Positions 14,836-43,691 of a stretch of 64,000 bases of DNA are shown piece after piece. Origin of the DNA: Candidatus Rifleibacteriota bacterium (lineage in GTDB: Bacteria; Muiribacteriota; Ozemobacteria; Ozemobacterales; Ozemobacteraceae). The translations under genes were made by a program, and so were the position numbers. The notes under the pieces were generated by a model, which searched no databases, was not told the origin of the DNA, and was given only the letters and a program-made list of their open reading frames with translations. Numbering within the stretch: the stretch's first letter is position 1; the number at the start of each line of letters is the position of its first letter. The stretch spans positions 66,264 to 130,263 of the forward strand of contig JADFZL010000018.1 of NCBI GenBank assembly GCA_015232575.1, written 5' to 3'.

Positions 14836-17091
14836 ATGCGTATTAATCAAAATGTTCTTTCAATTCAGACACATTCAACGTTGGCCCGGACAAACGCAAG
14901 ACTTGAAAAGTCTATCGAAAAATTAAGCTCTGGGTTAAGAATCAACCGTGCTGCTGATGATGCTGCAGGTCTTGCAATAAGTGAAAAGTTGCGAAGACAG
15001 ATAAGGGGCTTGTCGAGAGCCATTTCAAACTCTCAGGACGGCATATCAATGATTCAGACTGCAGAAGGTGCAATGGGCGAAACTCATTCCATACTTCAAA
15101 GAATGAGAGAGCTGGCTATACAAGCAGCTAATGACACACTGACTTCAAATGATCGTATGGAGATACAGAAAGAAGTCAATCAGCTTAAAGACGATATTAA
15201 CAGAATATCCAGAAATACTGAATTCAATACAAAGAAACTTCTAGATGGCTCGCAAACGGCTCTGATAAGCGGTTCTAGCAATTTTACCAAAGGCATAGTA
15301 ACTGGTGATCTGGCTGATGCAAGAGGAGATTATGATGTAAGTATTGTTCTTGAACAGGGCGGCGTTAGTCAGATGCAGCGCACACAAACTTTCACCATTC
15401 TCCCCTCAGAAGGCGATCCCACAACTCTTGCAAAAGGAAGCGACCAACTTAGCGATATTGCACAATTTTATGATGCCAATGGTACCTTTGTTCTTCAAAG
15501 TCCTCAAACCATTTTGCTGCAGGGCAATGGAAAAAATACATCTTTTGTAATTGACGGTCACACAACTCTTGATCAGTTGTCGGCCTCTCTACAAAATGCA
15601 CTTTCAACATCTTCAGGTCTTGATATTGCCGGTTCCAAAGCTTCTTATATAGGATCAAACCTTTCTGGAACCTCCAATGGAGGAGGATATATCGAAATGG
15701 CATCCGGCACTACCGGTGAAGATGGCGACGTAGCCATACTTGCTGATCAGCCGCTACTCAACGCCCTTGGCTTAAGCACCGTAAGAGAAAGTGCAAATAA
15801 TCAATACAAACTTCAAATAGCAAATGCAGGCGGATATGGTGCGATTACAAGAACTGACACAAATCGTGCTGTAGGCCTTCTTGAAGGCATTGATGTTACC
15901 TTCCAGTCTGAAGCGGCTCAGATTGCTGGTTATGGAGGAGTTGTAGATGGACTTTATTTCTCTGCTGCTGAAGAGCTGTATATTTCCGTTGCGGGTACAA
16001 CAATACCTATAAGCATAAGAGCGACAGTAAGTGGTGGTTGGACAATGGAAGGGTTAGCACGATTTATTAACAACAGAATTTCTGTTGCAGCAGTCAGTGG
16101 TGCCTCTGCTGCTGTTATAGACAACCAGATACGTTTCATGTTTAACCCACCATCTAATTACACTGGCAGCTCGAAAATAGTTACCCATACCAGCGGCAAT
16201 AATACTCTTGGAATAAATAATGGAACTTATTCTGGATATGTACAAAGCAACAAAAACGAAGCTAAGTCTATGAAGCTTGTTTCAATGTATTATTCAGCAC
16301 TTGCATCCCAAACAGTTGCAATAACACTATCGGCTGGAGATGCAGCTGAGGTTGTTACCTTATTCGAAACAATCAGTACAGCTACACTTGCAGATGGTAT
16401 AATGTTTAATATTATGCAAACAAACATTAATTATCAATTAAAGTCTGCTGCCGTTGCGGCTAGAGTAGATATTGTAGATTATACTATGGTTTTCAGTTCA
16501 ACAAGAGTAGGAAGGGTAAATGACGCAACAGTAAAATCAAGCACATTAACACTTTTCGCTCATGATGGTATAACGTCAGCAACTTCTACTCCAGCAGCCT
16601 CGTTCCTTAAGAGCTGGGGATTCACAAACATTTCCGGAATTACACCAATGGTTGATAAAGGTAAAGGCGACAGTACTTTCCGGTTGCATGTGGTAAACAA
16701 TGATCCACAGTTCCAGATTGGTGCCGATCAGGGGCAGTTTATGAAAATCGGAATAGCAGACATGAGCGCAGAATCACTTGGCGTTGATAACCTTAATATG
16801 ACAACAATTGCAGGCGCAAATTCATCATTATCAAAGCTAAATAATGCTATAGACAAGGTGTCTTCTGAAAGATCAAAACTTGGTGCATTCCAGAACAGAC
16901 TTGAATACGCAATAAGTAATCTTAGAAATACACACAGCAATCTCACTGCCTCGGAATCAAGAATCAGGGATGCTGACATTGCTCAGGAAATGATAGAATT
17001 CACTCGGAATCAAATTGTTGCACAATCAGGAACAGCAATGCTGGCTCAGGCAAATACAGTACCACAGTCAGTCCTGCAGTTATTAAAATAG
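14836..17091 (+). CDS. fliC: Flagellin paralog, 751 aa. The termini are near-identical to flagellin 1 and the central domain is divergent.
   Basis: N-terminus MRINQNVLSIQTHSTLARTNARLEKSIEKLSSGLRINRAADDAAGL. C-terminus ...FTRNQIVAQSGTAMLAQANTVPQSVLQLLK. Conserved 5' UTR and RBS. Confidence 0.95.
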   Translation: MRINQNVLSIQTHSTLARTNARLEKSIEKLSSGLRINRAADDAAGLAISEKLRRQIRGLSRAISNSQDGISMIQTAEGAMGETHSILQRMRELAIQAANDTLTSNDRMEIQKEVNQLKDDINRISRNTEFNTKKLLDGSQTALISGSSNFTKGIVTGDLADARGDYDVSIVLEQGGVSQMQRTQTFTILPSEGDPTTLAKGSDQLSDIAQFYDANGTFVLQSPQTILLQGNGKNTSFVIDGHTTLDQLSASLQNALSTSSGLDIAGSKASYIGSNLSGTSNGGGYIEMASGTTGEDGDVAILADQPLLNALGLSTVRESANNQYKLQIANAGGYGAITRTDTNRAVGLLEGIDVTFQSEAAQIAGYGGVVDGLYFSAAEELYISVAGTTIPISIRATVSGGWTMEGLARFINNRISVAAVSGASAAVIDNQIRFMFNPPSNYTGSSKIVTHTSGNNTLGINNGTYSGYVQSNKNEAKSMKLVSMYYSALASQTVAITLSAGDAAEVVTLFETISTATLADGIMFNIMQTNINYQLKSAAVAARVDIVDYTMVFSSTRVGRVNDATVKSSTLTLFAHDGITSATSTPAASFLKSWGFTNISGITPMVDKGKGDSTFRLHVVNNDPQFQIGADQGQFMKIGIADMSAESLGVDNLNMTTIAGANSSLSKLNNAIDKVSSERSKLGAFQNRLEYAISNLRNTHSNLTASESRIRDADIAQEMIEFTRNQIVAQSGTAMLAQANTVPQSVLQLLK

Positions 17092-17115
17092 TAGTTAAGC
17101 TCAGCATTATTATAG

Positions 17116-17146
17116 GCTGGAATTTAAATAAATATTAAATTCCAGC
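17116..17146 (+). terminator. Hairpin downstream of flagellin 2 (weak terminator candidate)
   Basis: ggctggaatttaa-ataaat-attaaattccagc. No strong U-tract. Confidence 0.3.
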
Positions 17147-17251
17147 ACAAATTTGATATATTGTGTTAGAATTATTAACAGGGGAGATATTGTTACTTTT
17201 CTAATAGGATCCTGTGGCCTGCGGATCTCAAGAGACTAAGGAGTAAATATT

Positions 17252-17638
17252 ATGGAAATCAATCGATTAAGTCCGGTTCCTTCTTCAGGACAGCAAATTC
17301 AAGCTGAACCGCCAGTAACAGTGCCTGTTGAGAATGCTGGAAATGCAGCCGAAACGGCACCTCAAATTCAGCAAACTCAACAGAATGAGAAGGAAAAGCA
17401 AGAGCAAAAAACTTCTATTGAGGAACTAAATCAAGCACTTGATACAGCAAATAAAACTGCTAACGCTTTTGATCGATCTCTTCGGTTTAAACTTCACGAA
17501 AAAACAAAAGAATATATGATAAGTGTTGTTGACACGAAAACTGATAAGGTTATCAGAGAAATTCCACCAAAAGAGTTTCTGGATATGTTAGCAAAAATGA
17601 GAGATTATATCGGGATGATTTTTGATAAAAAAGCTTGA
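17252..17638 (+). CDS. flaG: Flagellar protein FlaG
   Basis: 128 aa. The C-terminal region SLRFKLHEKTKEYMISVVDTKTDKVIREIPPKEFLDMLAKM matches the FlaG family signature (...V.V.D..TGEVIRQIPPEE.L...). AAGGAG RBS. Canonical position after flagellin. Confidence 0.75.
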   Translation: MEINRLSPVPSSGQQIQAEPPVTVPVENAGNAAETAPQIQQTQQNEKEKQEQKTSIEELNQALDTANKTANAFDRSLRFKLHEKTKEYMISVVDTKTDKVIREIPPKEFLDMLAKMRDYIGMIFDKKA

Positions 17639-29190: not shown

Positions 29191-29203
29191 AAAATTCTAA
29201 AAA

Positions 29204-29241
29204 CAAAGCTTCAACTTAAAAGTTGAAGCTTTGTTTTTTAT
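29204..29241 (+). terminator. Rho-independent terminator of the giant gene
   Basis: caaagcttcaact-taaa-agttgaagctttg followed by tttttta. A 13-bp perfect stem plus a U-tract, 14 bp after the stop. Confidence 0.75.
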
Positions 29242-29356: not shown

Positions 29357-31180
29357 ATGGAGAATATAATGCAATTTCAATCAGAGTATTTAGATGCAAT
29401 AAAAAGAATCTGGCAAAAAAGGTTAGATATTTATGAACTGCTTAATTTAGCTGAAAAAATAGAAAACAACAACAATTATGAGCTTGCTGCGGCATTATAT
29501 AAGCTGTGGCTTCTAAAAAATGATACAAACCAAAATCACTTCGTTTATTATAATCTGAGTGTCGTTTCTTTGAAAATGGGAGAATTAAACGATGCCTTGT
29601 CTGCTGCCAAAAAGGCGATTGAGCTTTATCCCAGTTTTATTCTTCCACATTTAACGCTTCTTCAAATTTACAACTCTCTGAGCATGAAAAATGAAAAGAT
29701 TGCAGAATGCCTCTGGATTACAGAGAATGTTTCGCCTGTTCAGAAAGAATTTCAAGACTTTCTTGTCTGCGCATTAAATACAGTTGCAGAAAAAGCAGAA
29801 GAGAACAAAGAATATGCAAAAGCATACGAATATTGTAGTAGAAGCCTTTCCATCAAAGAAGATCAGCCAGATGTACTGCATCATTGGATTTTTTTGAGAG
29901 AAAAACTTTGTATCTGGCCAGTATTATCATCTTTCGGTTCAATTTCCTCTGAGAAACAAAAAAGATTTTCTTCTGCAATGGCTATTTTAAGCATTACGGA
30001 CGACCCTGAATTACAATTCGAAACTGCTGTAAATTTTGCAAAAAAAATCTGCCTTCCAGAAATACTTTTATCTCAAAAAAGAAAATACAATCATAATAAA
30101 ATCAGAATCGGCTACTGTTCATCAAATTATTGTATTCATCCGGTTGGAATGCTTACCGTAGAGTTGTTTGAACAACACAACCGTGACTTATTCGAAATAT
30201 ATGGTTTCTGTTGGACAAACGAAGGGGATTCCGAACTTCGTACAAGAATAGCAAAATCTTTTGAACATTTTTACAAGATCGGACAACTCAGCGATGAAGA
30301 ATCAGCAGGATTAATCAAAGAAAGAGAAATTGATATTGTAATAGATCTTCATGGGCAAACCCTCGGAGCAAGACCGGGAATATTCGCTTTTCGTCCAGCA
30401 CCTGTTCAGATAACATACCTAGGCTTACCAGGAACAACCGGTTATTCGTTTATTGATTACGTAATTGCCGATCAATACATCATTCCAAATGAATTTCAAC
30501 ACTATTTCTCTGAAAAACCAATTTATATGCCAGATTGCTTTCAGGTAAGCGATCGAAAACGTGTGCCCTACCCCACCCCATCAAAATATAGTCAAGGTCT
30601 TCCAGAAACTGGATTTATTTTCTGCTCGTTCAACAGCAGTTTCAAGATAACCCCTGAAATATTCACCATCTGGATGAATATATTAAAAAGGGTTCCTGAC
30701 AGTGTTCTCTGGCTGATTTCTGACAATACGGCAACAGAAGAAAACTTAAAAAAAGAGGCACAAAAGCAAAAGGTATCAGTTGAGCGGCTCATTTTTTCTA
30801 ACCTTGTATCACCGCCAGAATATCTTGCACGCATGAAACTTGCAGACCTTTTTCTGGACACCTACCCATTTAACGCAGGAACGACCGCAAACGACTCTCT
30901 TTGGATGGGTCTTCCGGTTCTTACACTAAGCGGACGTTCATTTGCATCACGAATGGCAGGATCATTACTCAAGACGCTTAACCTGCATGAGCTGATAACG
31001 AAAAATTACCAGGACTACGAAGAGAAAGCTATCACACTTGCACATGATCCGGAAAAATGCTTCAAGATACGAAATCATCTTAAAACAGAGTGCAAAAACG
31101 GGGTTCTGTTCGACACTCCAAGATTCGTAAAAAACCTTGAAAACATTTTTCTCAAACTAATAACAGAATTGCCATGTTAA
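29357..31180 (+). CDS. TPR-repeat protein fused to a GT41-family (O-GlcNAc transferase / FlmG-like) glycosyltransferase domain
   Basis: N-terminal TPR-like helices. C-terminal segments read RIGYCSSNYCIHPVGMLTVELFE, FRPAPVQITYLGLPGTTGYSFIDYVIADQYIIPNEFQHYFSEKPIYMPDCFQ and GFIFCSFNSSFKITPEIFTIWMNILKRVPDSVLWL. These are typical of the OGT/SPINDLY catalytic domain. Confidence 0.7.
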   Translation: MENIMQFQSEYLDAIKRIWQKRLDIYELLNLAEKIENNNNYELAAALYKLWLLKNDTNQNHFVYYNLSVVSLKMGELNDALSAAKKAIELYPSFILPHLTLLQIYNSLSMKNEKIAECLWITENVSPVQKEFQDFLVCALNTVAEKAEENKEYAKAYEYCSRSLSIKEDQPDVLHHWIFLREKLCIWPVLSSFGSISSEKQKRFSSAMAILSITDDPELQFETAVNFAKKICLPEILLSQKRKYNHNKIRIGYCSSNYCIHPVGMLTVELFEQHNRDLFEIYGFCWTNEGDSELRTRIAKSFEHFYKIGQLSDEESAGLIKEREIDIVIDLHGQTLGARPGIFAFRPAPVQITYLGLPGTTGYSFIDYVIADQYIIPNEFQHYFSEKPIYMPDCFQVSDRKRVPYPTPSKYSQGLPETGFIFCSFNSSFKITPEIFTIWMNILKRVPDSVLWLISDNTATEENLKKEAQKQKVSVERLIFSNLVSPPEYLARMKLADLFLDTYPFNAGTTANDSLWMGLPVLTLSGRSFASRMAGSLLKTLNLHELITKNYQDYEEKAITLAHDPEKCFKIRNHLKTECKNGVLFDTPRFVKNLENIFLKLITELPC

Positions 31181-31345: not shown

Positions 31346-32455
31346 TCAGCCTTTTTTGGCAAGAACCGCTGCATTTGTACCATTAAATGCAGCAATAGCA
31401 GGAACAATATTAGTATGTTCGGGCAGATTAATTGTTGTCATAACTGCCGTATAGATCCGATTTCTCAAAAGATGATTTTTCATAACATATTCCTGCCGAA
31501 ATATGATTCCATCGGTCCCGGCATTATCAAAATTTTCAATTGCCAGATTCAGTGCTTTCCTGATTGTTGGTACAGAAAAATCGTCATTAATCCTTACAAT
31601 CCCTAATTTTTTCTGTTCATCAAAAGATATTACTTTTTCAAGATCAACAACTCTTTCTGGAATTATTGGGACCAACCCTGCCAACAGAGCATCAAAAATA
31701 CGGGTTGAAAGATCTTTGTCAACCGGTAAAATTAATGTAGTTTTATAATTCAGCCACTCTTTAAATCGAGAAATTTTATCCAGATTAAAATATCTTTTTC
31801 TATCATGCATTGTCATCAACAACACATCAGCTTCTGGCATGTTCTTCTGCAAATCACTAATAACTTCAGTCCGCCAGGTAGTTTTGTAATCTACATAGTT
31901 TACCAACAATTGATTACTTCTTTTCATGTTGATTATCAGATCAGTATCGGTTCGAATATCTCCCAACTCTTTCAAGGACCATTGAGCAGAACAGGCTGGC
32001 AAAAAGCCAATTACCAGAGATGCTGGATTGTAAAGATAGTCGATAATATAATCATGGCTGAAAAATACATAATCAGCCATCAATATTGTTTTTAAGTTGT
32101 TAAGATGCCCCAGATGGTTATCCCAGAGCCAGACAACAACGACGGAAGACGGTTTAAGCTGCTGCCTGATTTTCCAAAGATACGGACTCATATCAGAACC
32201 ATGAGCAGTGGTAAGTAGCACATCAGCTTCAGAAAGTTCTGTTTTGTAGTCTATAAACTTCAATTTTGGCTGAATGCCTCCAAAATTGAGATCATCAGAC
32301 AAATCTGCTGGAAAATATTTAATAAAGTCATTTTCAATCGAAGGATAAAATGCAAAGTTAATCTTCTCAAGTTTATTCAATTGCGCAGTATTATTCCATA
32401 AGCGCTGCAAATTATGCTTCGGCCACATCGCTTCCTCCCACAAAATAATATTCAA
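31346..32455 (-). CDS. Hypothetical protein, possibly a GT-B-like glycosyltransferase
   Basis: 369 aa. The only weak GT-B-like signal is the C-terminal segment STRIFDALLAGLVPIIPE. Confidence 0.35.
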   Translation of the reverse strand: MNIILWEEAMWPKHNLQRLWNNTAQLNKLEKINFAFYPSIENDFIKYFPADLSDDLNFGGIQPKLKFIDYKTELSEADVLLTTAHGSDMSPYLWKIRQQLKPSSVVVVWLWDNHLGHLNNLKTILMADYVFFSHDYIIDYLYNPASLVIGFLPACSAQWSLKELGDIRTDTDLIINMKRSNQLLVNYVDYKTTWRTEVISDLQKNMPEADVLLMTMHDRKRYFNLDKISRFKEWLNYKTTLILPVDKDLSTRIFDALLAGLVPIIPERVVDLEKVISFDEQKKLGIVRINDDFSVPTIRKALNLAIENFDNAGTDGIIFRQEYVMKNHLLRNRIYTAVMTTINLPEHTNIVPAIAAFNGTNAAVLAKKG

Positions 32456-32612
32456 TTAGTTGCTTACCAAAAAATACAGCATCGCAAGACAATATTTTTT
32501 TTCCTGTTCAACTTTGAATTTTTTTGATATTATACAATAAGTCAGGGAAATACAACACCTTAAAGCCATATTCTTGATAAATTTGGTAATACCCTTTAAA
32601 GAAGCATAAACC

Positions 32613-33452
32613 GTGAAAACTGCAAAAGATGATCCAATAAAGCTTGAGGAAAGCGTCATTCCAATGTTACAGAGTGAGCTCTCTCACACTGGTCTTAAAG
32701 ACTATTATCATGTTTTTGAAGAAAACATAGCTTCACTTATTAATTGTAAGGGGTTGGAAATTGCTCAACAAAAAATTTTTGATTTCCTTTCACAGGTAAC
32801 TCCTTCGAAGTTACCTGTGTTTATATGTCAACATGTATTGGGTGAGAGATTGAATTTTAAAGATGGAATTGTTTTTTCTCCTCATGCATCACAGATTAAT
32901 GGATTTATTTTAATTCCACATTTCAATTCAATAGCTGGTGATTTTATAGATTTTATTCCTGTGAAAAAGCGTGCCTGGATTGGAACTTTTATTGGCGACA
33001 CCAATACAAATCCTCTTCGCAAGAAAATCTATGATACACTTGTTGGAACTAAAGATTGGTTAATTAATGACACAGGCGTGTGGCACTTTTCGAAATCTCC
33101 TGATCAGAGGGAAAAAGACAAAGAAAGTTACATTAATAGTCTACAAAATTCAATCTTTTGTCTTTGTCCTCCCGGAACCGGCGCTGGCACTCTTCGACTT
33201 TGGGAATCAATTTCATGCGGTACAATACCTGTTATTTTTGGAAACACTCTTCTTCCAAAAGAATTAGAACCTCTTGCAGTAAGGATTGATACAATAGATT
33301 CAAAGGATGTTTTTCTTCAAAATTTACACGAGCGTGGAACTAATGTTAATTTCAGAGCAGCTCAACTATACCTGAAATATTGGAGCAACTTTGCAAATAA
33401 GAAAATCTATAAAAATATTGTACAATTTTTAGATGAAAAATTAAGAAAGTGA
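32613..33452 (+). CDS. Exostosin-like (GT47-like) glycosyltransferase domain protein
   Basis: SIFCLCPPGTGAGTLRLWESISCGTIPVIF matches the exostosin C-terminal motif (F.LCP.G...S.R..EA...GCIPVI). Confidence 0.5.
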   Translation: MKTAKDDPIKLEESVIPMLQSELSHTGLKDYYHVFEENIASLINCKGLEIAQQKIFDFLSQVTPSKLPVFICQHVLGERLNFKDGIVFSPHASQINGFILIPHFNSIAGDFIDFIPVKKRAWIGTFIGDTNTNPLRKKIYDTLVGTKDWLINDTGVWHFSKSPDQREKDKESYINSLQNSIFCLCPPGTGAGTLRLWESISCGTIPVIFGNTLLPKELEPLAVRIDTIDSKDVFLQNLHERGTNVNFRAAQLYLKYWSNFANKKIYKNIVQFLDEKLRK

Positions 33453-34165
33453 CTAATTCGTTGAAAATATATACGTTTTCTACTCAATCGTACAAGTCTC
33501 TATTAGATTTAAGCCTGAGTTCGTTGATTCAAATCGGAGAACATGAGAATGTTGTTGTTGCTTCGTTTGAGCAAAAAGCGAATTTTGTGGAGCTTTTTTC
33601 GCCAGAATGGCGTTTAACAATGATTGAAAAATTGAGATATGTATTATTTTCAATAGATGCCGTACAACCGTTTGTTCATGCTGATTGTGATATAGTTTAC
33701 TATCGACCGTTTACTCAACGTTTACTTACCTTACTAACAACAAGTGGCCTCGATTTGATTTTTCAGGCTGATAGTTCGCAGAATGTTTGTTTGGGTTTTT
33801 TTGTTTGTAAACCTACGAAAAGAACTTATGACTTGTTTGCAGCTTCCATTAAACTTCTTGAAGAAGGTAATGCTGAAAATTTTCACCAGGCTTTCAATAA
33901 ATTGCTGAATTCTCAGCTTTTTTCTGATATAAAATATGGACTGCTAGGCTCAGATGCATACAGCATTTGGAGGCAAACCGATGGCAAGCTCTGGGATTCC
34001 TCTCAACCAGTTAATAAAATTTTCGATGCTGTTTTTATGCATCATGCCAACTTCACCGTTGGAATTGATAACAAACTTAACTTAATAACAAAGGTAAGGG
34101 AAAATATGGTTTTTAAAAGTCCGATTATGTTTCAAACACCAGTGCATTACGAATTTTCACTATAA
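33449..34165 (+). CDS. Hypothetical protein (possible nucleotide-diphospho-sugar transferase fold)
   Basis: 238 aa. It contains a DCD (DxD-like) segment, FVHADCDIVYYRPF. Translationally coupled to its neighbours. Confidence 0.3.
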   Translation: MTNSLKIYTFSTQSYKSLLDLSLSSLIQIGEHENVVVASFEQKANFVELFSPEWRLTMIEKLRYVLFSIDAVQPFVHADCDIVYYRPFTQRLLTLLTTSGLDLIFQADSSQNVCLGFFVCKPTKRTYDLFAASIKLLEEGNAENFHQAFNKLLNSQLFSDIKYGLLGSDAYSIWRQTDGKLWDSSQPVNKIFDAVFMHHANFTVGIDNKLNLITKVRENMVFKSPIMFQTPVHYEFSL

Positions 34166-34167
34166 TT

Positions 34168-35478
34168 ATGTGTGGCTTTTATATAACAAATTCTCAGAAT
34201 TATTTTCCAAATGAGAGAGCTTTAGAACGTTTACGGCGCCGAGGACCTGACTTTCAGGTATTCTCAACAATAGACGGTCTTAGATGTTATCATGCATTAC
34301 TTTCCATGTCTGGATCATTTACTCCTCAACCGTTGGAGAAAAACGGTTCATTCCTTTTTTACAATGGTGAAATATATAATTATCAGAGTATAGGAAAATT
34401 TTCCTCAGACTCAGAAGCCATTTTATCTCTCTATAACTCAGAAGGTATTTCTGGTTTAGCTCAACTTGATGGTGAGTTTGCTATTTGCATTATTGACACA
34501 AAAAAAGGTGAAATGGTTTTAGCGACTGACACCTTTGGAACCAAACCTTTACATATTTCAAAGTTTGGTGGTTATGAATGGGGTGTTTCTTCTTTGCCTT
34601 CACTCTTTGCACAATATCCTTCAAAACGATTTAAGCCTAATCATATAATGAGAATTCGCTATTCTGATCTTCATGTATTGGAAGAATTGCCCTTAAAGAA
34701 CTTTTCTCTAAAACAGTACAAGACTAATTATGATGACTTTTTTTTATCCATAGTTAATTCTATGAAAAAACGTACAAATATGAATCCAGTCCCTTTTGTT
34801 CCTATTTCCAGCGGGATTGATAGTGGTACAATTGCGGCAACTCTTGATGAAATTGGAGTTCCTTTTGTAAGTTCTACTTTTCTTGGACACGAAGATCTGT
34901 CCATTATCAAAGCACGAATAGAGAAAAGAAAAGGACCAGCTTACGTATTTCCGGAGCCACCAAAGGAAGTTATAGAATCCTACCGCATTCAATTTGAAAA
35001 CGAGGTTGATGATTTTTATTATGGTCCGAATAATGAGTTGAGAACTCGTCGTGGAAAAGATGATCCGGGTGCATTAGCTCTTTTCATTCTTTTATTAGAC
35101 ATCAAGCAAAGGCATCCAGTTCAAGTTGTGCTTTCAGGTCAGGGAGGAGATGAGATCATGGGTACAATTCAAACCTACACCTTTGGGAAACCAAATCCTT
35201 CTTTTTTTCCCGAGAATTTAGCTCAGGTTTTTCCGTGGGAGAATTTTTTCCAGGGAGCAAATTCTTCTTATCTACTGAAAGAAGAAAACATTGCTTCAAA
35301 TTTTGGTATTGAAACTAGATATCCATTACTTGATTTTGATGTAGTACAAGAGTTTCTTTATTTAGTTCCTGCATTAAAAAATCCTGGTTCGAAACGTCCT
35401 CTCAGCGAGTATTTGAAATCCTTAAATTATCCACATAACTCGTTAAAAGCTGGCTTTAGTTATGTTAGCCCAAAATAG
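34168..35478 (+). CDS. Asparagine-synthase-like amidotransferase (short AsnB-family paralog)
   Basis: N-terminal MCGFYIT (Ntn Cys2). PP-loop variant PISSGIDSGTIAATL. 436 aa. Confidence 0.55.
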   Translation: MCGFYITNSQNYFPNERALERLRRRGPDFQVFSTIDGLRCYHALLSMSGSFTPQPLEKNGSFLFYNGEIYNYQSIGKFSSDSEAILSLYNSEGISGLAQLDGEFAICIIDTKKGEMVLATDTFGTKPLHISKFGGYEWGVSSLPSLFAQYPSKRFKPNHIMRIRYSDLHVLEELPLKNFSLKQYKTNYDDFFLSIVNSMKKRTNMNPVPFVPISSGIDSGTIAATLDEIGVPFVSSTFLGHEDLSIIKARIEKRKGPAYVFPEPPKEVIESYRIQFENEVDDFYYGPNNELRTRRGKDDPGALALFILLLDIKQRHPVQVVLSGQGGDEIMGTIQTYTFGKPNPSFFPENLAQVFPWENFFQGANSSYLLKEENIASNFGIETRYPLLDFDVVQEFLYLVPALKNPGSKRPLSEYLKSLNYPHNSLKAGFSYVSPK

Positions 35479-35495
35479 TCAGGAATAAAATTATT

Positions 35496-36215
35496 ATGAA
35501 CCTAATCCGCATAGGATCTCAATATGGTGGTTGGATTATCGATGATGCCGAATATCTGCATGGCTGCACTATGATTAGTGCTGGTTTAGGCGAGGATGCA
35601 AGTTTTGATGTTGAGTTTGCAACCAGGTTTAAAGCAACTGTGTTATTGGTTGATCCCACTCCAAGAGCCATATTGCACTACCTGGAAATTCAGAAAGAGT
35701 TAGGGAAATATGGAAATGTTCCCTATTCATCAACTGGCAAACAGCCAATTGCTGCTTATGACTTGAGAGCTATAAAAAGTTCTCAACTTCAATTGCTTCC
35801 ATTTGCGCTTTGGAATAAAAGAGGCATTACTTTTTTTCGCCCTCCTGACAATCCTGAACATGTCTCTCACCAAATATTTGAGTTCCAAAGTGAAAAACGT
35901 ACTGAGACAACAGGTTCATTTCCAGTAGCTTCTTCAACTATCAGCGATATAGTTTCGGTTTTTTGTAAGTTTCCCCCAACTGTTGTAAAACTCGATATTG
36001 AAGGAGCCGCAAGCTCAGTTATTGAAGATATGCTTCTAAACGGTATTTTTCCGAATCAACTCCTTGTGGAATTTGATGAACTTAAAATACCTAACCCACA
36101 ATTACATAATAAAGCCTTGCAGATACATGCACTATTGGAAAAATATGGTTATTGTTTATCAGCCCAGGAACAATTCAATTGTTCGTATATTAAAAAAGCT
36201 ATTTCGCTTGGTTAG
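35496..36215 (+). CDS. FkbM-family-like methyltransferase
   Basis: GGWIIDDAEYLHGCTMISAGLGEDASFDVEFATRFKATVLLVDPTP resembles the FkbM domain core. 239 aa. Confidence 0.4.
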   Translation: MNLIRIGSQYGGWIIDDAEYLHGCTMISAGLGEDASFDVEFATRFKATVLLVDPTPRAILHYLEIQKELGKYGNVPYSSTGKQPIAAYDLRAIKSSQLQLLPFALWNKRGITFFRPPDNPEHVSHQIFEFQSEKRTETTGSFPVASSTISDIVSVFCKFPPTVVKLDIEGAASSVIEDMLLNGIFPNQLLVEFDELKIPNPQLHNKALQIHALLEKYGYCLSAQEQFNCSYIKKAISLG

Positions 36216-36454
36216 AGTTTTTTAATGTTTTTTGTTTGACTTTTTGAGGTTTTTGTAATAAAAGACTTATGTCTTATGAAAAGGCTGCTAAAGTAATCGG
36301 AAACCAATAGAAGTGCTTTTAAAAAAAAACATAAGTTCTGATGATGTATTATGATAATTAAAAGTCATCAAATAGAATTAGATGAAAGTAATTATTGCTC
36401 ATCAATTAAGTAGCTGCCACAGACAGAAATTAATAAAGAGGTTATCCTTAGATA

Positions 36455-37216
36455 ATGACAATATCCAAAGCGAAACAAACAGATAATAAGCTGATAGTTG
36501 TTGTTCCACTGCATAACAGGCCTGCTTTCAATTTGCTTGAACAATATTCAGTTGATAACTTAATTAAAAAAGCAAATACACGAAAAATTTTATTTTTAGC
36601 AGCAAATAGCATGAACAAAACTTATTATTCTAACAGGTATCCCGAGGTTGAATTATTATCTTTCGAAGATAACTTTTTTGAATCGAATAATTCAAGCAAT
36701 AAGTTGTTTTTAAATAAACAGTTTTATAAATTGTTTGAAAGTTATGATTTTATGCTGGTACATCATCCTGATGCTTTTTTAGTGCAAGATGATCTTGATG
36801 ATTGGATGATCCAGAATATTGATTATATCGGCGCACCGATACCAGAAGGGGTTGAAGTCAGAGTAAAAATTGGAAAGTTTTTTTTTGGAAATGGACTGAC
36901 TGTCAAAGCTTTTGTCGGCAATGGAGGATTTAGCCTTCGACACATAAATAAATCAATTTCTTTGATGGAAGAGTTTGCAGAAATACATGAAAAGTGGCTT
37001 TTAAACAGCGGAAGAGAAGACTTGTTTTTTTCAATTGCTGGTCTTCTTTCCTCGAATTACTGTATCCCCAACCAGTTGGTAGCCTCACGTTTTTCGCTTG
37101 AGCTGGAGGGTGAAAAATACTTTAATTTTAATGACTGCAAACTCCCTACAGGCTTCCATGGCTGGTGGAAAAACGATATCGACTTTTATAAAAATCTCGT
37201 TGTGAAAACATCATGA
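36455..37216 (+). CDS. Hypothetical protein
   Basis: 253 aa. No confident motif. Confidence 0.3.
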   Translation: MTISKAKQTDNKLIVVVPLHNRPAFNLLEQYSVDNLIKKANTRKILFLAANSMNKTYYSNRYPEVELLSFEDNFFESNNSSNKLFLNKQFYKLFESYDFMLVHHPDAFLVQDDLDDWMIQNIDYIGAPIPEGVEVRVKIGKFFFGNGLTVKAFVGNGGFSLRHINKSISLMEEFAEIHEKWLLNSGREDLFFSIAGLLSSNYCIPNQLVASRFSLELEGEKYFNFNDCKLPTGFHGWWKNDIDFYKNLVVKTS

Positions 37217-37227
37217 TAAGAAAATAA

Positions 37228-38538
37228 ATGAAAACTAATAATCTATATCATATTACTTCTTTACTTAGAAATGCGTTGATAAAGACCCCTAAGGTTCTTA
37301 TTCTATCAACATTACAAGGAACAGGATCTGGAATAGCTGCATACCGTCTACATAAAAATTTGTTGAAAGCTGAAATTGCTTCGACAATGTGTGTACTTGA
37401 AAGAACAAATTCAGATCCTACTGTTATTTCCATTAAGAATAATGTCAAAGGAATACCTGTTTTATCCTGGAGACATTTAAGCGATTATTGGCACGATCTT
37501 CTTCAGAATTATCCAAACAAATCACCAACTCTATGTTGTTTTACTACACCTGATTCATTAGTACCACTGGAAAGTTTTAATCAAGATTGCGATGTTATTA
37601 ATCTGCACTGGATCTCAGGTTTTGTTGATCTTCCAAAAATTCCAAAGCTTTTCAAAGGTAAAAAGATTGTTTGGACTCTTCATGATATGAATGCTTTTAC
37701 TGGCGGGTGTCATTATACTCAGAAATGTACTAAATATGAGTCAAAGTGCTCTGAATGTCCCCAACTTGGTAAAAGCCTAAATTCAGAAGATATTGTTAAA
37801 GATATCTGGGAGACAAAGAATAAAATCTATGAACAACTTGAGGACATGACTATAATAACTCCCAGCCGCTGGATGGCAGATTGTTCAAAAAAAAGTTCTC
37901 TTTTGGGTCGCTTCCCCCATAAAGTCATTCCAAACAGTGTTGACGGTGAAATTTTCAAGCCCATGTCAAGAGAAGAAGCACGTATTAAACTTGGTTTGCC
38001 CATTAAAAAGAAACTTATTCTTTTTGGTGCAACCTCGCTGGGAAGTGTTAGAAAAGGTTTTGAACTGTTTCTAAGAATAATTGAAATTCTGCCAAAATTT
38101 ATCTCTCCAGATGAGCTTGAGTTAGTATCTTTTGGTTCTCTGGATCCTCGGCTTACCTTTCCCACTCCATTCAAATTTCACAGTCTAGGCAGTTTAAATA
38201 ACGAAGATGATTTATGCTTAGCCTATAATGCATCAGATCTTTATGTAATGTCTTCAAAAGAAGACAATCTTCCAAACACAGCCGTGGAAAGTTTAGCCTG
38301 CGGAACACCGGTTGTTAGTTTTAATATCGGAGGTTTAACAGATATCGTCGATCAGGGGAAAACAGGTTATTTAGCACCTTTTCCAGATGTTTTAGAAATG
38401 GCGCATGGTATCAAATGGGTTCTATCATCTTCGGAAATACCTTTTAGAGAGAATTGCAGAAAAAAAGCACTGGAAAGTTTTTCGCCAGAAAAGCAAACCG
38501 ATGCGTATATTGACGTCTATCAAAAAGTAAGATCATAA
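37228..38538 (+). CDS. Glycosyltransferase family 4 (GT-B, retaining)
   Basis: EDNLPNTAVESLACGTPVVSFNIGGLTDIVDQGKTGYL is the classic GT4 EX7E region. Confidence 0.8.
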   Translation: MKTNNLYHITSLLRNALIKTPKVLILSTLQGTGSGIAAYRLHKNLLKAEIASTMCVLERTNSDPTVISIKNNVKGIPVLSWRHLSDYWHDLLQNYPNKSPTLCCFTTPDSLVPLESFNQDCDVINLHWISGFVDLPKIPKLFKGKKIVWTLHDMNAFTGGCHYTQKCTKYESKCSECPQLGKSLNSEDIVKDIWETKNKIYEQLEDMTIITPSRWMADCSKKSSLLGRFPHKVIPNSVDGEIFKPMSREEARIKLGLPIKKKLILFGATSLGSVRKGFELFLRIIEILPKFISPDELELVSFGSLDPRLTFPTPFKFHSLGSLNNEDDLCLAYNASDLYVMSSKEDNLPNTAVESLACGTPVVSFNIGGLTDIVDQGKTGYLAPFPDVLEMAHGIKWVLSSSEIPFRENCRKKALESFSPEKQTDAYIDVYQKVRS

Positions 38539-38673
38539 CCAAGCAATCACACAGTTTTTTGTACCAACTCAAAATTCTGGTATTTTTATGTAAAAATCAT
38601 ACTCCTCCTTTGAAAAAATAATATTATAATTTTTCAGGTCATTGTAAAAAATACGCAAAAACCGTTATTTTGC

Positions 38674-39699
38674 TTATGGTAATGGGAAGTTGTCATCCTC
38701 TCTATTGGCAATGTTTACTCTATGCATTATTTCACCTGAATTCCAGGCATCCCCAAACTTATTAAGAATATGATTCCAATTATGAATGAAATGCTCCGGT
38801 CTTGAATTAACTGTTACTGAGTTAAAGAGTCTCATCCCACCTTCACTGAAAATACATTTTTTTCCGCGGAACGGCATAAGGAGTATTTTATATCCTTTCA
38901 GCCAGGAAGAAAAACAATTATGATAATCATCATACTGATAAGGCTCAAGTGCTTCGGGGAAGAAATTGAGTTCATCTGCTGCTGATATGCGAATGATTTG
39001 TGGTGCCCTGTTAACAACCGCTACGTACTGAAGTAAAAAATCATTGACTTTTTTTTCCAAAACAGGAACTAGAATTTCTTCATATTTCCCAAGCCTGAAG
39101 CCATTTTTTCCTTCTATCAGACAAGGCTCATAAACAGCGCTTTTTAAGCCTTCGTCACCCACCACCGGCGGTGTTTTCCCCATGTTGCCACCACCATTAC
39201 CACCTATTATTGCCAGTTTTCTGTCAAATTCAAGTAGTTTTAAAGAATAATTGAGCCAGTTAAAGATACTCATATCATAAATGTCATCATCCTGAAACAA
39301 CGCAACATATTTACAACCCCAAGTTTTTGCTATCTGTAAAGACAATCTATAGTTGCAAATTTCATATGTATCATTAGTAGACAACACTAAATGATTCTTT
39401 CCAGGAAGCAAAGCACCAGCCAGGCTTGCGGAAGAATCAACACAACCATCAGCAAAGAGAATAACATTTGCCGGACTTAGTTGAAGAAAGGGATTTAATA
39501 CTTCATTCAATCTGTTTGCTTTGTTAAAGGTCTGAAAAACAAAAGTCAAATCATTAAAATTGACAAATTCCCCTTTCCTCGACTTAAGATACTCTTTATG
39601 TCTTACTACCTTGTCAATTGAAAACAAAGACTCAGAGTTCTGCTCGTTTAACCAGCCCACACTTTTATAATATTTCTCAGTGATTTTCATACAATGCAA
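38674..39699 (-). CDS. Hypothetical protein, possible GT-A-fold glycosyltransferase
   Basis: 341 aa. ILFADGCVDSS followed by a DxD-like segment, VALFQDDDIY. Confidence 0.3.
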   Translation of the reverse strand: MHCMKITEKYYKSVGWLNEQNSESLFSIDKVVRHKEYLKSRKGEFVNFNDLTFVFQTFNKANRLNEVLNPFLQLSPANVILFADGCVDSSASLAGALLPGKNHLVLSTNDTYEICNYRLSLQIAKTWGCKYVALFQDDDIYDMSIFNWLNYSLKLLEFDRKLAIIGGNGGGNMGKTPPVVGDEGLKSAVYEPCLIEGKNGFRLGKYEEILVPVLEKKVNDFLLQYVAVVNRAPQIIRISAADELNFFPEALEPYQYDDYHNCFSSWLKGYKILLMPFRGKKCIFSEGGMRLFNSVTVNSRPEHFIHNWNHILNKFGDAWNSGEIMHRVNIANREDDNFPLP

Positions 39700-39789
39700 T
39701 CTTTTGTAAAAAGAACAAATTGATCCTGAATCAGAAAAAAGCAGCTCACTTTTGATCTTTTAATCCTGATAATAAACATCAGTCCTGGG

Positions 39790-40548
39790 TTATTCAAGCA
39801 CATACCAGTCATCACAACTAGTCTGATCAGTATATATTCTTTTATAACCAAAACGAACTAATAGATCAAATATTTTGCTTCTATTATCAGTAAAATTATG
39901 CTCACAAGTTATAGCTTTAAATTTATATAAAGAAAAATCAAATGAGTTGAGAATTTCAAACTCAGAACCCTCAGTATCAATGCTTAGATAGTCTATTAAA
40001 GATGGTGCATTGTGCTGCTTTAACAAATCCAGAAGTGAAACTGTTTCAACACTATAATTACGTGAGTTCGAACGAATCTTGCTGTGAAAATCAGAATCTT
40101 TGAAAGCCGTAATTGTGCTATGTGCAACAGCATAAACTTCTGAAAAATCAAGAGAAAGATTTGAATGGCTCCATACACACCTTGTATCAATTATAGCGTT
40201 CCTGTTTTGCCTCAATAATTCATGACAACTTCTTGCAGGCTCAACTAAAATACCAGACCAACCATATTTTTTTTCCAATAAATAAGTATTGCTATGTGTC
40301 AGTCCATCAAGAGCACCAAATTCTACAAAATAGCCACCCGTCTTATGTCTTAAATATTTCAACACAAACAAGTCCTGCAAAATCTGGGATTTTGTTCCAG
40401 AAAAATCTGCAAGAAGGTCAATCTTCAACTTATTTTCAGCCAGTGTCTTTTTCATTTCTTGTATTTCTTTAACTTGCTGATTTACTAATCCTATTATTTC
40501 ATTGATTTTATTTAACATACGCCACTCAACTTTTTCTATAAAAGCCAC
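39790..40548 (-). CDS. FkbM-family SAM methyltransferase
   Basis: GGYFVEFGALDGLTHSNTYLLEKKYGWSGILVEPA and SIDTEGSEFEIL are FkbM hallmarks. There is an N-terminal coiled-coil. Confidence 0.7.
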   Translation of the reverse strand: MAFIEKVEWRMLNKINEIIGLVNQQVKEIQEMKKTLAENKLKIDLLADFSGTKSQILQDLFVLKYLRHKTGGYFVEFGALDGLTHSNTYLLEKKYGWSGILVEPARSCHELLRQNRNAIIDTRCVWSHSNLSLDFSEVYAVAHSTITAFKDSDFHSKIRSNSRNYSVETVSLLDLLKQHNAPSLIDYLSIDTEGSEFEILNSFDFSLYKFKAITCEHNFTDNRSKIFDLLVRFGYKRIYTDQTSCDDWYVLE

Positions 40549-40879
40549 TTTTTTTCTAGCAGCTCAAATTTTTAGTTTTTTATATCGGGAGTTCCAGAAC
40601 CGTATCAATGAAGTATACTTCAGGTAGCAGTTGGTTGCAAAAAATACGAAAAACAGTTTTTGGCTCTGAAAAAACAGATAAAATGACTCTTAATAAGGAT
40701 TTCACGAATATTAAAGTAATGGACACGAGCTTAATTGAAAAACGCCATATTTGCAGTATCTGATCGTAGTTTAAGCCTGTTTTCAAAATAAAACTTCCGT
40801 TATAGTGCGAAAATTAACACCTTGAAACAAGTCATCTATATCCTATCATTAGATAATTTTATAGAGAACGTCATACAGG

Positions 40880-41728
40880 CTATTTGGATAGTATTCCAAG
40901 AATGCCATTATTATTGAATAACCGATAATCAGGATATCTCCTCTCAAGTTCAAATTGAATTTCGTTATCAATAGGCGATATAAATGTCGGCTGACATAGT
41001 TCTACCTGAAATCTTGAGTGGCGAAAGATATTAATATAATCCTCACTGAAATACCGATTAATTTGATTACTGTTATAAGTGTAGTAGATAATTTCTTCGG
41101 CAAATCGGCAATCAAATCTGGCTAGCAAGTCAAGATAAGCCTTTGTTCGAGTCTGAAGCAAATGTCCCCATGGACGAAAAATGTAATTTTGGTGTTCCAA
41201 GCTTTTGTCGAACCTGTCAGGAATACCAATCGGTAGATGGTGGCCATCAAAAGCGCTCCAAATAGGTGAAAACATCGTGAATAGTTTGCCACCGGGCTTG
41301 AGACAATGGAACATTTTTTCCAACGCCAACGGCAGTCGATCCATGTGTTCAAAACTGGCAATTGAGAAAACAAGATCATACTTCCCAAAGTGATCTTCAG
41401 GTATCTCCTCAATCCTCATAAACAAAAGTTTATAGCGACCTGCATATTCCATCTGTGCAGAAACATTTTGATCATTTCGGTGAAAATGATAATCATATCC
41501 TGCCTCCCGATAATACGAGAGTTCTTCTACGCCCGTCCAACTATTGCATCCCAAGTGATCTAAGACCAGAGATGGTGGCAATCCCCCCCCGACTTCAAGA
41601 ACATCAATGCTTTTAAGAGGAATATACTGTAGACAGCACTCCAAGTAATTCAGGTGATAGGTAATGCTATAGACCTTCTTATAATGTTCCAGTTGCTCTT
41701 GCGTCAGACCTAGAGGAAAGTGCTGCAT
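40880..41728 (-). CDS. Class I SAM-dependent methyltransferase
   Basis: VLEVGGGLPPSLV (motif I-like). LKPGGKLF (post-I/II). Confidence 0.55.
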   Translation of the reverse strand: MQHFPLGLTQEQLEHYKKVYSITYHLNYLECCLQYIPLKSIDVLEVGGGLPPSLVLDHLGCNSWTGVEELSYYREAGYDYHFHRNDQNVSAQMEYAGRYKLLFMRIEEIPEDHFGKYDLVFSIASFEHMDRLPLALEKMFHCLKPGGKLFTMFSPIWSAFDGHHLPIGIPDRFDKSLEHQNYIFRPWGHLLQTRTKAYLDLLARFDCRFAEEIIYYTYNSNQINRYFSEDYINIFRHSRFQVELCQPTFISPIDNEIQFELERRYPDYRLFNNNGILGILSK

Positions 41729-41891
41729 AAAGTATCCTCTTTTAACATCACCAATACGACCTTAACTTTACACTCCGGTGAATGTGGTTTTCTTTTGTTT
41801 ATTCTACCATATTTTTTCAAATTTTTGTCTCAACCTTGGGAAACATTATAATACATTATATTTATTTCTTTCAACGTTTTAAATTCCAATT

Positions 41892-43691
41892 TTATTTCCT
41901 TGCCTCTATAAAAATCGAATTTACTTTACGTACAAGGCCATTTTTATCTTTATCAAGAAGGTAAGAATTAAACTCTGGAATATCACTTTCATCGTATCTA
42001 AAAAGCTTCATATTTACAAAACCAGCATCACGCAATAATTTTTCCACCCTATAGCGATCATACATCCAATTGCAATTTTCATTCTCTACCCATGATAATT
42101 TTGGAGGTTTAAATTGTAAGAGTTCTTTAATTGATAATTCATAGAAATATTCTGCTTCATTCTGCTTCGCCATTACTTTTTCAAGATTACCAAGATAATT
42201 TCTGACTATTTGCTCTAGATCAGAAACAACTAACCGAAGAATTCCATTATTCTTTAGTATTCTCAGGACTTCGGTAATAAAAAAAGCAGCTATTTCTTTT
42301 GGTAAATACTCCAACAGGTACGAAGCATATACGACATCAGTACTATTGTTCTTCAGAGGCAGTCCATTCGAAACATCCCACTTGATGAAATTAGGAGCTG
42401 ATGAGACAATATCAAAATTTAACCATCGAATATCATAACATTCACCACAGCCAACATTGGCATAAACACCTTCGCTTGCTAAAGGAAAACCATGATAAAT
42501 CTGCTTCTGGTCTTTTTCACATGATGCATTTAAAACTTTATTGGAATTATTTGATACTAATTTTTTCCTTTTTTCAGCTATAATATCAAAATAAAAATCG
42601 CTCAGTCTTTTTGTCTGTTTGTAAATATTAAAATACTCGGCTGCCATTTTCAAATTCTTTTTAGCACTAGAATATTTTTCAAGCAATTCAAAATCCCCAG
42701 AATACAATATTTCATCCAAGGTAAACCCAATCCTATATTTATTCGCATAATAACTAGTCATTTTTGCCCGAGGGTCAATAATAATTGGTAGGCCTGCTTC
42801 AATATAATCAAATACCTTATTAGCCATTCCATATTTGATCAGATATTCTGTGTTTTCAATATTTTCGAGAGAATATGGGTTAAATAAGCCAAGATCATAA
42901 TTTTTTAATTCAGACACTAAAGAATCATATGGCAAAGTCCTGTGAAGACGAAATTTTCCGGCAGAATCTTTTTCATAGTCAATGTATTCAGAAAAAACCT
43001 CATTGAAATTACTATTTTCCGGTGGATATACATGAAAGTTCATACCAGAGGTTATTATTTTTTTTGCAACTGACAATAACCCACGATCTTTGTATTCAGG
43101 AAAATACTTTTCAACCATAAACGAGCCACAATAAACAACATGAAGATCTTTTTTTGAAGAAACAATCTTTTGGGCTAATCCACTTTCATCCAAGCATCCA
43201 TCAAATAACAATATCCTTTTCTTCCCAGTGATTAAAGAAGTATCTTTTTTATAAACTTGAGTTACAAGACTTCTACAGCACAAAGCATCTGCCTTGTTAA
43301 AACAATATTGTTCAAGAGCACACGAATCTTTATGAGATTTATGATTTAATAAAAAATCATCAGTAAACATTTTGAAAATTGTATCATATGGATCAAGAAT
43401 AATTGGAATATGGTCTATATTATTAATTAAATGATACGAGACGATGTAGTCATAATGATTAAAAACATGAAAGATGTTAGGTTCAATTTCTCTTATCGAA
43501 GAAAATAGCTCTGAAACGGAAGAAAAATATACTACCTGAAAATGTGACTCACAAGTAGAAAAATCAGTCCCTTGAGGGCAAAGAAAAACAACATGCCAGC
43601 CATTTTTTTTCAATCCGAGCGCAAGTTTTTTTTCACGATGTCTCGGTATTCCTGAAACAAAAGCAACAATATTGGATCTATTGAGAATCAT
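41892..43691 (-). CDS. Bifunctional GT-B glycosyltransferase / SAM methyltransferase fusion
   Basis: N-terminal ~380 aa carry a GT-B C-terminal-lobe signature, NKVFDYIEAGLPIIIDP. C-terminal ~200 aa carry ANVGCGECYDIRWLNFD and LRILKNNGILRLVV (Methyltransf_11/23-like). Confidence 0.5.
   Translation of the reverse strand: MILNRSNIVAFVSGIPRHREKKLALGLKKNGWHVVFLCPQGTDFSTCESHFQVVYFSSVSELFSSIREIEPNIFHVFNHYDYIVSYHLINNIDHIPIILDPYDTIFKMFTDDFLLNHKSHKDSCALEQYCFNKADALCCRSLVTQVYKKDTSLITGKKRILLFDGCLDESGLAQKIVSSKKDLHVVYCGSFMVEKYFPEYKDRGLLSVAKKIITSGMNFHVYPPENSNFNEVFSEYIDYEKDSAGKFRLHRTLPYDSLVSELKNYDLGLFNPYSLENIENTEYLIKYGMANKVFDYIEAGLPIIIDPRAKMTSYYANKYRIGFTLDEILYSGDFELLEKYSSAKKNLKMAAEYFNIYKQTKRLSDFYFDIIAEKRKKLVSNNSNKVLNASCEKDQKQIYHGFPLASEGVYANVGCGECYDIRWLNFDIVSSAPNFIKWDVSNGLPLKNNSTDVVYASYLLEYLPKEIAAFFITEVLRILKNNGILRLVVSDLEQIVRNYLGNLEKVMAKQNEAEYFYELSIKELLQFKPPKLSWVENENCNWMYDRYRVEKLLRDAGFVNMKLFRYDESDIPEFNSYLLDKDKNGLVRKVNSIFIEARK

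Follow-up and report, generated by a model that had tools for sequence, protein, structure and literature searches.

Two TPR-GT41 glycosyltransferase genes, a sugar-modification island and a giant ALTTAQ-repeat protein gene in a Candidatus Rifleibacteriota contig

The GT41 proteins of the locus

A 64-kb stretch of the 148-kb contig JADFZL010000018.1 from a Candidatus Rifleibacteriota bacterium, hereafter the window, was analysed with respect to two genes whose products combine N-terminal TPRs with a GT41 domain, as in O-GlcNAc transferase (OGT). An earlier note on this DNA had described these genes as bracketing a glycosylation island and had read their products as flagellin glycosyltransferases. 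Both open reading frames (ORFs), of 607 aa (GT41-A) and 1034 aa (GT41-B), were found where the note had placed them, and about 29 kb of sugar-modification genes indeed lie between them. GT41-A starts 166 nt past the end of a gene for a Thr-rich giant protein built from ALTTAQ repeats and is its immediate downstream neighbour, as had also been noted; it lies 12 kb downstream of two flagellin genes on the same strand. Gene neighbourhoods in other bacteria suggest that the GT41 enzymes are tied to the giant protein rather than to flagellin, in what would be an undescribed system that coats a giant fibre protein with sugar.

Pfam Glyco_transf_41 (PF13844, cut-off 25 bits) matched GT41-A with 292 bits (E 8.6e-87) and GT41-B with 280 bits (E 4.7e-83). 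The two proteins share 38% identity over 551 aa (E 1e-110), and OGT chains in PDB matched them at E 1e-74 to 1e-110. GT41-A aligned almost end to end with the Xanthomonas enzyme XcOGT (PDB 2JLB; residues 67-569 to 29-527, E 1.7e-78), and GT41-B aligned with human OGT (E 1.8e-110), TPRs included. By sequence comparison, membership of the GT41 family is beyond chance for both proteins. The conserved blocks FRPAPVQITYLGLPGTTG, IIPNEFQHYFSEKPIYMPD and FCSFNSSFKITP singled out earlier are all present in GT41-A and have clear equivalents in GT41-B. The claim that both proteins start with TPRs held fully for GT41-B, the N-terminal array of which was matched by many TPR families of Pfam. In GT41-A a single TPR passed the Pfam threshold (TPR_2, 28.6 vs 27 bits); the TPR-like region of XcOGT nevertheless covers this N-terminus in the alignment, and TPR scores are good among the homologues of GT41-A. 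No membrane-spanning hydrophobic segment was detected in either protein. The NCBI gene model of GT41-B (P0127) is 1030 aa long and starts four codons after the ATG of the ORF used here (63267-63278).

An NCBI protein from a metagenome-assembled genome (MAG) of Candidatus Riflebacteria has exactly the sequence of GT41-A (100% identity). GT41-A belongs to a very large family of proteins of about 604 aa, with about 50% identity across Burkholderia, Cupriavidus, Methylomonas, Tolumonas, Magnetovirga and Thauera, and the homology search also found members in several uncultured phyla.

Alignment with XcOGT and human OGT, part of the check proposed in the earlier note, showed that the catalytic Lys and His are kept in both proteins. 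Numbered separately for each protein, the key residues are H261, K430, G508-T509-T510 and D513 in GT41-A and H278, K448, H527-S528-T529 and D532 in GT41-B. H261 and H278 correspond to XcOGT H218, and K430 and K448 to XcOGT K388 and human OGT K842, the latter described as the key catalytic residue (PMC4683255). Where human OGT has the turn H920-T921-T922...D925, GT41-B has H-S-T...D and GT41-A has G-T-T...D; at the position of human OGT C917, the GT41-A subfamily has Phe. The Gly-type motif PFN[AG]G[TS]T..ND occurs in 116 of the 120 best GT41-A homologues, so that the Gly is not a defect of the window gene alone; the His of the turn is kept in 114 of 120 GT41-B homologues. In OGT the oxyanion hole is formed by backbone amides of the H-T-T turn residues, the bacterial enzyme TtOGT, for which catalysis is plausible, has Cys at the His position, and the His side chain has been modelled touching the N-acetyl group of the donor (PMC3660302). 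From these data we infer that GT41-A is probably active as an enzyme and likely uses a donor other than plain UDP-N-acetylglucosamine (UDP-GlcNAc).

GT41-B is a three-domain enzyme, its third domain (from about residue 640 onwards) having been missed in the earlier note. This domain shows fold similarity to NodZ, FUT8 and POFUT. Dozens of homologues share the three-domain architecture at 43-57% identity over the full length, often being further fused to GT4, methyltransferase, FkbM or C39-peptidase domains. The donor-binding motif H-x-R-G-x-D-K is kept in 33 of 38 homologues of similar length. The window protein has S-I-S-G-K-G-A-E-D in its place, and its nearest relatives are also divergent; because of this motif loss, the fucosyltransferase-fold domain may be catalytically dead in this organism.

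Table 1. Features of the window discussed in the text
Feature	Position	Strand	Remarks
GT41-A	29357..31180	+	607 aa; TPR-like N-terminus, residues ~1-200; GT41 catalytic domain, residues ~239-600
GT41-B	60174..63278	-	1034 aa; three-domain enzyme
TPR array of GT41-B, residues 16-183	62730..63233	-	Pfam TPR families; aligns with human OGT TPRs
NodZ-like C-terminal domain of GT41-B, residues 640-1034	60177..61361	-	GT23/GT65-type fucosyltransferase fold
ALTTAQ-repeat giant, 3767 aa	17887..29190	+	Pfam PF20080
Hairpin with T-run	29199..29238	+	18-bp perfect stem; putative intrinsic terminator or attenuator
Sugar biosynthesis/modification island between the GT41 genes	31346..60152		
Maf-type flagellin glycosyltransferase candidate	9918..11894	-	PF01973 and PF20157
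Two 751-aa flagellins and FlaG	12192..17638	+	

The giant repeat protein and the sugar island

The giant protein was matched by Pfam ALTTAQ_rpt (PF20080) in 119 stretches with a total of 2384.5 bits (cut-off 26.4). It consists of about 470 units of the form L-[TS]-T-x-Q-[ILV]-x-[AS] and contains 17.3% Thr and 12.0% Ser. Neither a signal peptide nor a transmembrane segment was detected in it. PF20080 is a large family, with at least 712 cluster representatives at E<=1e-10 and members of up to 5499 aa.

In a sequence search, a 1000-residue stretch of the giant matched one PDB entry, 9ZEM (HeliScrew4), at E 4.9e-15. HeliScrew4 is a designed eight-residue alpha-helical screw reported in a preprint of December 2025; its authors knew of only a single natural case and raised the question of why the fold is not used in nature. 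An AlphaFold2 model of residues 2810-3065, computed with 15 in-register internal fragments as the alignment input, reached a predicted local distance difference test score (pLDDT) of 92.4 and a predicted template modelling score (pTM) of 0.84. The model displays 31 helices of 5-6 residues, one per 8-residue unit, in which the Ser or Thr at position 1 is predicted to serve as N-cap and the Gln to occupy N3 of a capping box (DSSP register). When the model was compared with PDB by Foldseek, weak solenoid matches only were obtained, the best having a template modelling score of 0.45 (mesothelin); the link to HeliScrew is therefore made by the sequence match and not by Foldseek. The giant is thus predicted to fold as a rod-like alpha-helical screw.

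Directly 3' of the giant stop codon and ahead of GT41-A there is a hairpin followed by a T-run (Table 1), likely an intrinsic terminator or attenuator between the two genes. Structural genes with high expression typically show this pattern when accessory genes with lower transcription come next. Within the giant gene, positions 25375-26547 form a tandem repeat with a 411-bp (137-aa) unit in 2.9 copies with 83% matches, which indicates recent internal duplication.

The island between the GT41 genes encodes a GT47-like protein, a nucleotide-diphospho-sugar transferase, an AsnB-like protein, two FkbM methyltransferases, DUF5672, GT4 and GT9 proteins, several S-adenosylmethionine (SAM)-dependent methyltransferases, two B12-binding radical-SAM proteins, a C-methyltransferase, DegT, a formyltransferase, epimerases/dehydratases, a WbuC cupin, a radical-SAM/SPASM protein and a split transketolase. 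At 43968-60152, the two B12-binding radical-SAM enzymes and three further radical-SAM enzymes, two of them with SPASM, were observed among dense sugar-tailoring genes, which here include those for the split transketolase, the sugar C-methyltransferase, DegT, the formyltransferase, the WbuC cupin and the GT9 protein; the gene set of this region suggests a branched or multiply methylated deoxy-amino sugar. Neither NeuB nor a CMP-sugar synthetase was matched among the ORFs of the window, and such genes could be encoded on other parts of the contig or of the genome. Homologues of the DUF5672, GT4, C-methyltransferase, FkbM and radical-SAM/SPASM proteins and of the product of the ORF at 31346 co-occur with GT41 and ALTTAQ genes elsewhere, GT2 genes also being among those that accompany the pair in other genomes.

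Gene neighbourhoods selected by GT41 and by ALTTAQ

A survey based on GT41-A gave 22 related loci: scanning one genome per species yielded 17, and look-ups of individual proteins added the other 5. An ALTTAQ-repeat ORF was present in 16 of them. In all 12 loci in which the GT41 protein was at least 48% identical to GT41-A, an ALTTAQ gene directly adjoined the GT41 gene, usually upstream on the same strand at a distance of 4-300 nt; these close loci span Riflebacteria, Acidobacteriota, Desulfobacterota-like bacteria and Beta- and Gammaproteobacteria. In the first two neighbourhoods, those of another Riflebacteria MAG and of Magnetovirga frankeli, the GT41-A orthologue lies immediately downstream of the gene for a 2019-aa or 2818-aa protein with the eight-residue repeats and the N-terminus of the window giant, and no flagellin gene was found nearby in either. 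Flagellin genes within 10 kb were present in 3 of the 22 loci (L006, L007 and L010), and among the 12 close loci only in L006 and L007, both from Thauera.

Loci of the GT41-B type gave a similar picture. One of them (L024) has a 2786-aa ALTTAQ gene 19 nt upstream of the GT41 gene, its termini resembling those of the window giant (...PEQQAALVP vs ...GPQQAALLLP). In another (L025), two ALTTAQ genes of about 2600 aa and a methyltransferase gene accompany the GT41 gene, and all components of a type I secretion system (T1SS) are encoded as well; a further locus, known from protein records, has a gene for a 4740-aa protein without Pfam match upstream. A T1SS adjoins the GT41 gene in L023, and L026 includes a sugar island with C-methyltransferase, DUF5672 and GT4 genes as in the window. 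No flagellin gene was found in L023-L026.

Against circularity, loci were also chosen by the ALTTAQ N-terminus alone, with a 4-sequence N-terminal alignment as the query for the metagenome scan (a 13-sequence version was too diverse). This gave 78 metagenome loci (L027-L104). In 33 of these the sequence continued for 2.5 kb or more past the 3' end of the repeat gene, and 19 of the 33 carried a GT41 gene, both Gly and His types being represented, and a GT41 gene was also present in five more loci with less downstream room. By our estimate, which was not computed, a random 10-kb flank would hold a GT41 gene in well under 1% of cases. The pairing of the two genes was thus found in both directions of search, and the giant, which had been named earlier as an alternative or additional acceptor, becomes the best-supported candidate.

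Genes for the ABC or HlyD components of a T1SS lie beside ALTTAQ genes in 11 of the 78 loci, as well as in L010, L016 and L025; no T1SS was found in the window. T1SS genes (ABC, some with a C39 peptidase domain, HlyD-type adaptor, OEP) were often seen adjoining ALTTAQ and/or GT41 genes in L010, L012, L015, L016, L023 and L025. The ALTTAQ proteins of L001-L025 and the window begin with repeats and have a common N-terminus, M-x-S-I-I-x-G-L-S-x-x-Q-I-A-A-L-T-T...D-F-x-A-M-T-T-x-Q, and many of them share the C-terminal ending ...T-D-Q-I-Q-Y-L-N-[LVI]; these conserved motifs could be export or recognition signals. In several loci, including the T1SS-linked L016 and L025, the protein carries a non-repeat C-terminal domain, whereas the window giant ends in repeats.

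In 8 of the 78 loci a flagellin gene lies directly beside an ALTTAQ gene. The gene order is ALTTAQ-GT41-flagellin in L051 and L057 and flagellin-GT41-ALTTAQ in L097. In Thauera linaloolentis (L007) it is flagellin-ALTTAQ-GT41-x-x-flagellin-FliD, and in Geopseudomonas (L010) flagellin-T1SS-ALTTAQ-GT41+MT, with GT41 and methyltransferase (MT) fused. These neighbourhoods give the connection between GT41 and flagellin a basis, yet the constant partner is the ALTTAQ protein. The two window flagellins are 66% identical to each other, and no ALTTAQ-like motif was found in them. Both flagellin genes are preceded by a sigma-28-like -10 box, GACGATAA (about 12086-12093 and 14757-14764). No such box was detected ahead of the giant gene, where a possible sigma-54-like site is incorrectly spaced and was not used as evidence.

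The Maf candidate lies upstream of the flagellin and FlaG genes beside genes for a methyltransferase, a metallo-beta-lactamase (MBL)-fold protein and an AsnB-like amidotransferase. It matched PF01973 (MptE-like domain) with 138 bits (E 2.9e-40) and PF20157 (Maf_flag10_N) with 23.5 bits, equal to the cut-off, and reached 160 bits for the PseD domain of NCBIfam, below the cut-off of 670. The Maf system by the flagellins that had been proposed earlier was accordingly recovered, except that for its PseA-like member only a likeness to asparagine synthase could be confirmed. Nonulosonic acids are the usual substrates of Maf enzymes. In the related loci L029 and L037, a Maf protein 55-56% identical to that of the window is encoded beside NeuB and GNAT genes, about 6.5 kb from an ALTTAQ gene.

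Candidate acceptors and comparison with known systems

The best explanation of these data, to which we assign a probability of roughly 0.55, is that GT41-A, and probably GT41-B, are soluble OGT-type enzymes that initiate or extend cytoplasmic O-glycosylation of the ALTTAQ giant, which would be their main acceptor instead of flagellin, with sugars from the island, Maf handling the two flagellins. The TPR superhelix would bind the repetitive, still-unfolded giant polypeptide, and the GT41 domain would move a nucleotide-activated sugar onto Thr or Ser of the L-T-T-x-Q-I-x-A units. Enzymes encoded between the GT41 genes would make and extend an unusual methylated glycan, and the modified giant, by then a rod-like screw as predicted, would presumably be exported, type I secretion being the route linked to such genes in other genomes. 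The data establish family membership, conserved catalytic residues and a gene pairing found from either side of the search; acceptor, O-linkage, donor sugar, sequence of steps and export are inferred. The acceptor chemistry fits O-linkage, because Ser and Thr make up 29% of the giant (about 1100 sites) against 24 N-x-S/T sequons. The window enzymes are by far nearest to O-transferases (E 1e-78), HMW1C-type N-transferases matching at E 1e-5 to 1e-6 only.

Several points weigh against glycosylation of the giant by these enzymes. No mention of the ALTTAQ family was found in the literature searched. Synteny demonstrates that genes are functionally linked and does not by itself make one product the substrate of the other. 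Of the ALTTAQ loci with enough sequence, about 40% show no GT41 gene; in the window, GT41-B and the giant gene are 31 kb apart, and no secretion system for the giant was found. GT41-A has Gly at the position of OGT His920 and may use a different donor. Flagellin could also be an acceptor, since modules of ALTTAQ and GT41 genes recur within flagellin loci (the window, L006, L007, L010 and 8 of the 78 metagenome loci) and since a published catalogue of flagellin glycosylation islands in enterobacteria (De Maayer & Cowan 2016, PMC4875605) includes GT41 (COG3914) genes.

The alternative that survives best, while still unlikely, is that giant and flagellins alike are modified by the GT41 enzymes, or that a single glycan pathway serves both surface proteins. 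The frequent presence of ALTTAQ modules within flagellin loci would then be explained: flagellin genes are adjacent in the window and in the 3 of 22 GT41-A-selected and 8 of 78 ALTTAQ-selected loci given above, far above the 1% or so expected per random 20 kb by our estimate, and Maf occurs with NeuB near ALTTAQ in L029 and L037. Most ALTTAQ/GT41 loci, however, have no flagellin gene nearby, the window flagellins show no ALTTAQ-like motif through which one TPR domain could bind both kinds of protein, and the adjacency could simply mean that glycosylation islands accumulate in flagellin regions. The preference of the module for flagellin loci could stem from a shared glycan pathway, from co-regulation with motility, from dual acceptors or from island hot spots.

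The reading of the earlier note, in which both GT41 proteins are FlmG-like flagellin O-glycosyltransferases coexisting with the Maf system and the giant is unrelated or incidental, appears improbable. Two coexisting flagellin systems are suggested solely by gene position in the window. The same-strand position of GT41-A downstream of the flagellins agrees with it, as do the ALTTAQ/GT41 genes between flagellins in L007 and beside them in L006, L010, L051, L057 and L097, the enterobacterial islands (PMC4875605) and the precedent of FlmG, in which a TPR domain can select flagellin. Set against these are the ALTTAQ gene adjacent in 12 of 12 close loci, with flagellin within 10 kb just in L006 and L007, the GT41-B-type loci L023-L026, in which no flagellin gene was found, and the Maf gene that already stands beside the flagellins. 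For FlmG, moreover, membership of GT41 is undocumented; its donors are CMP-nonulosonic acids, for which neither NeuB nor a CMP-sugar synthetase was matched in the window. The earlier interpretation thus stands for TPR and GT41 domains, for Maf by the flagellins and for the giant as candidate acceptor, and is not supported for flagellin as main acceptor.

Lower still we rate the chance that the GT41 proteins are general or regulatory O-GlcNAc-type transferases acting on other cytoplasmic or surface proteins, such as pilins, or on a non-protein acceptor, the pairing with ALTTAQ reflecting co-regulation or a scaffold. No substrates are known for XcOGT, the nearest relative with a solved structure, and a cyanobacterial GT41 (Synechococcus Ogt) is genetically reported as needed for pilin glycosylation. 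Type IV pilus assembly genes (PilB ATPase, PilM, PilN and PilO) were observed at the left end of the window (402-5459), no pilin gene being seen among them; they lie 24 kb away and encode assembly proteins, not pilin. A general transferase would also not be expected to keep strict adjacency to one gene family across phyla. An HMW1C-like N-glycosyltransferase (NGT) reading was rejected, with NCBIfam NF049992 scoring 41 bits (GT41-A) and 36 bits (GT41-B) against a cut-off of 1000, PDB NGT chains matching at E 5e-7 to 9e-6, and only 24 sequons in the 3767 aa of the giant.

Extended to the whole family, O-glycosylation of the giant leads to a more tentative proposal: ALTTAQ giants might be widespread natural alpha-helical-screw fibres, heavily O-glycosylated on their Thr-rich repeats by dedicated TPR-GT41 enzymes before export, which would use a T1SS in some lineages and be coupled to flagella in others. 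If true, this would be a new bacterial mucin-like surface glycoprotein system and the first defined, conserved substrate for bacterial OGT homologues, which are abundant while almost none has a known substrate; the pair conserved across phyla names a candidate that is directly testable. PF20080 would then be a large natural instance of a fold recently called almost absent from nature. For annotation, a TPR-GT41 gene near flagellins is not automatically a flagellin glycosyltransferase, and the question is raised why ALTTAQ giants so often sit in flagellin loci.

Among known systems, XcOGT (XCC0866; PDB 2JLB/2VSN) resembles GT41-A in that a short TPR region is fused directly to the GT41 domain with nothing between. 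XcOGT H218 and K388 are kept in both window proteins; the T-T of the phosphate-binding H-T-T turn is kept in GT41-A and reads S-T in GT41-B. The GT41-A subfamily differs from XcOGT (H466) and human OGT (H920) by its Gly, which suggests a donor other than plain UDP-GlcNAc, and GT41-B differs from both by the extra fucosyltransferase-fold domain. The acceptors of human OGT are thousands of proteins, and those of XcOGT are unknown.

FlmG of Caulobacter crescentus and Brevundimonas transfers pseudaminic or legionaminic acid from the CMP-activated donors (CMP-Pse/Leg) to flagellins. It is similar in that an N-terminal TPR domain picks the acceptor and a C-terminal GT-B domain the donor, and it is a soluble, cytoplasmic protein of about 600 aa like GT41-A. 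Its C-terminal domain has been called only 'GT-B' and 'a hitherto unknown class', of which FlmG was named the founding member, and its papers never assign it to GT41; it is set apart here by these descriptions and by the window having no nonulosonate pathway. For Burkholderia FlmQ, a flagellin glycosyltransferase phenotype has been confirmed in a paper that names no family. The window also encodes a glycosyltransferase of the Maf type by its flagellins, the fold and family of which are unrelated to GT41. In the enterobacterial islands (PMC4875605), GT41 (COG3914) genes lie within sugar islands linked to flagellin and often adjoin a methyltransferase gene or are fused to one; there the assignment to flagellin is bioinformatic and no giant repeat protein is reported, whereas the conserved partner of the window genes is an ALTTAQ protein.

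The closest functional analogy is HMW1C/NGT with the HMW1 adhesin of Haemophilus and Actinobacillus, in which a cytoplasmic GT41 enzyme encoded beside a giant secreted repeat or adhesin protein decorates it at many sites before export. HMW1C, in which an all-alpha domain takes the place of the TPRs, adds N-linked hexoses to N-x-S/T. Serine-rich repeat (SRR) adhesins of streptococci and staphylococci are likewise comparable: their huge Ser/Thr-rich repeats are O-GlcNAcylated in the cytoplasm by GtfA/GtfB, after which the glycan is extended and the protein leaves by dedicated export. GtfA/B are of GT4 type, not GT41, export is by accessory Sec, and the SRRs are disordered, in contrast to the helical solenoid predicted for the giant.

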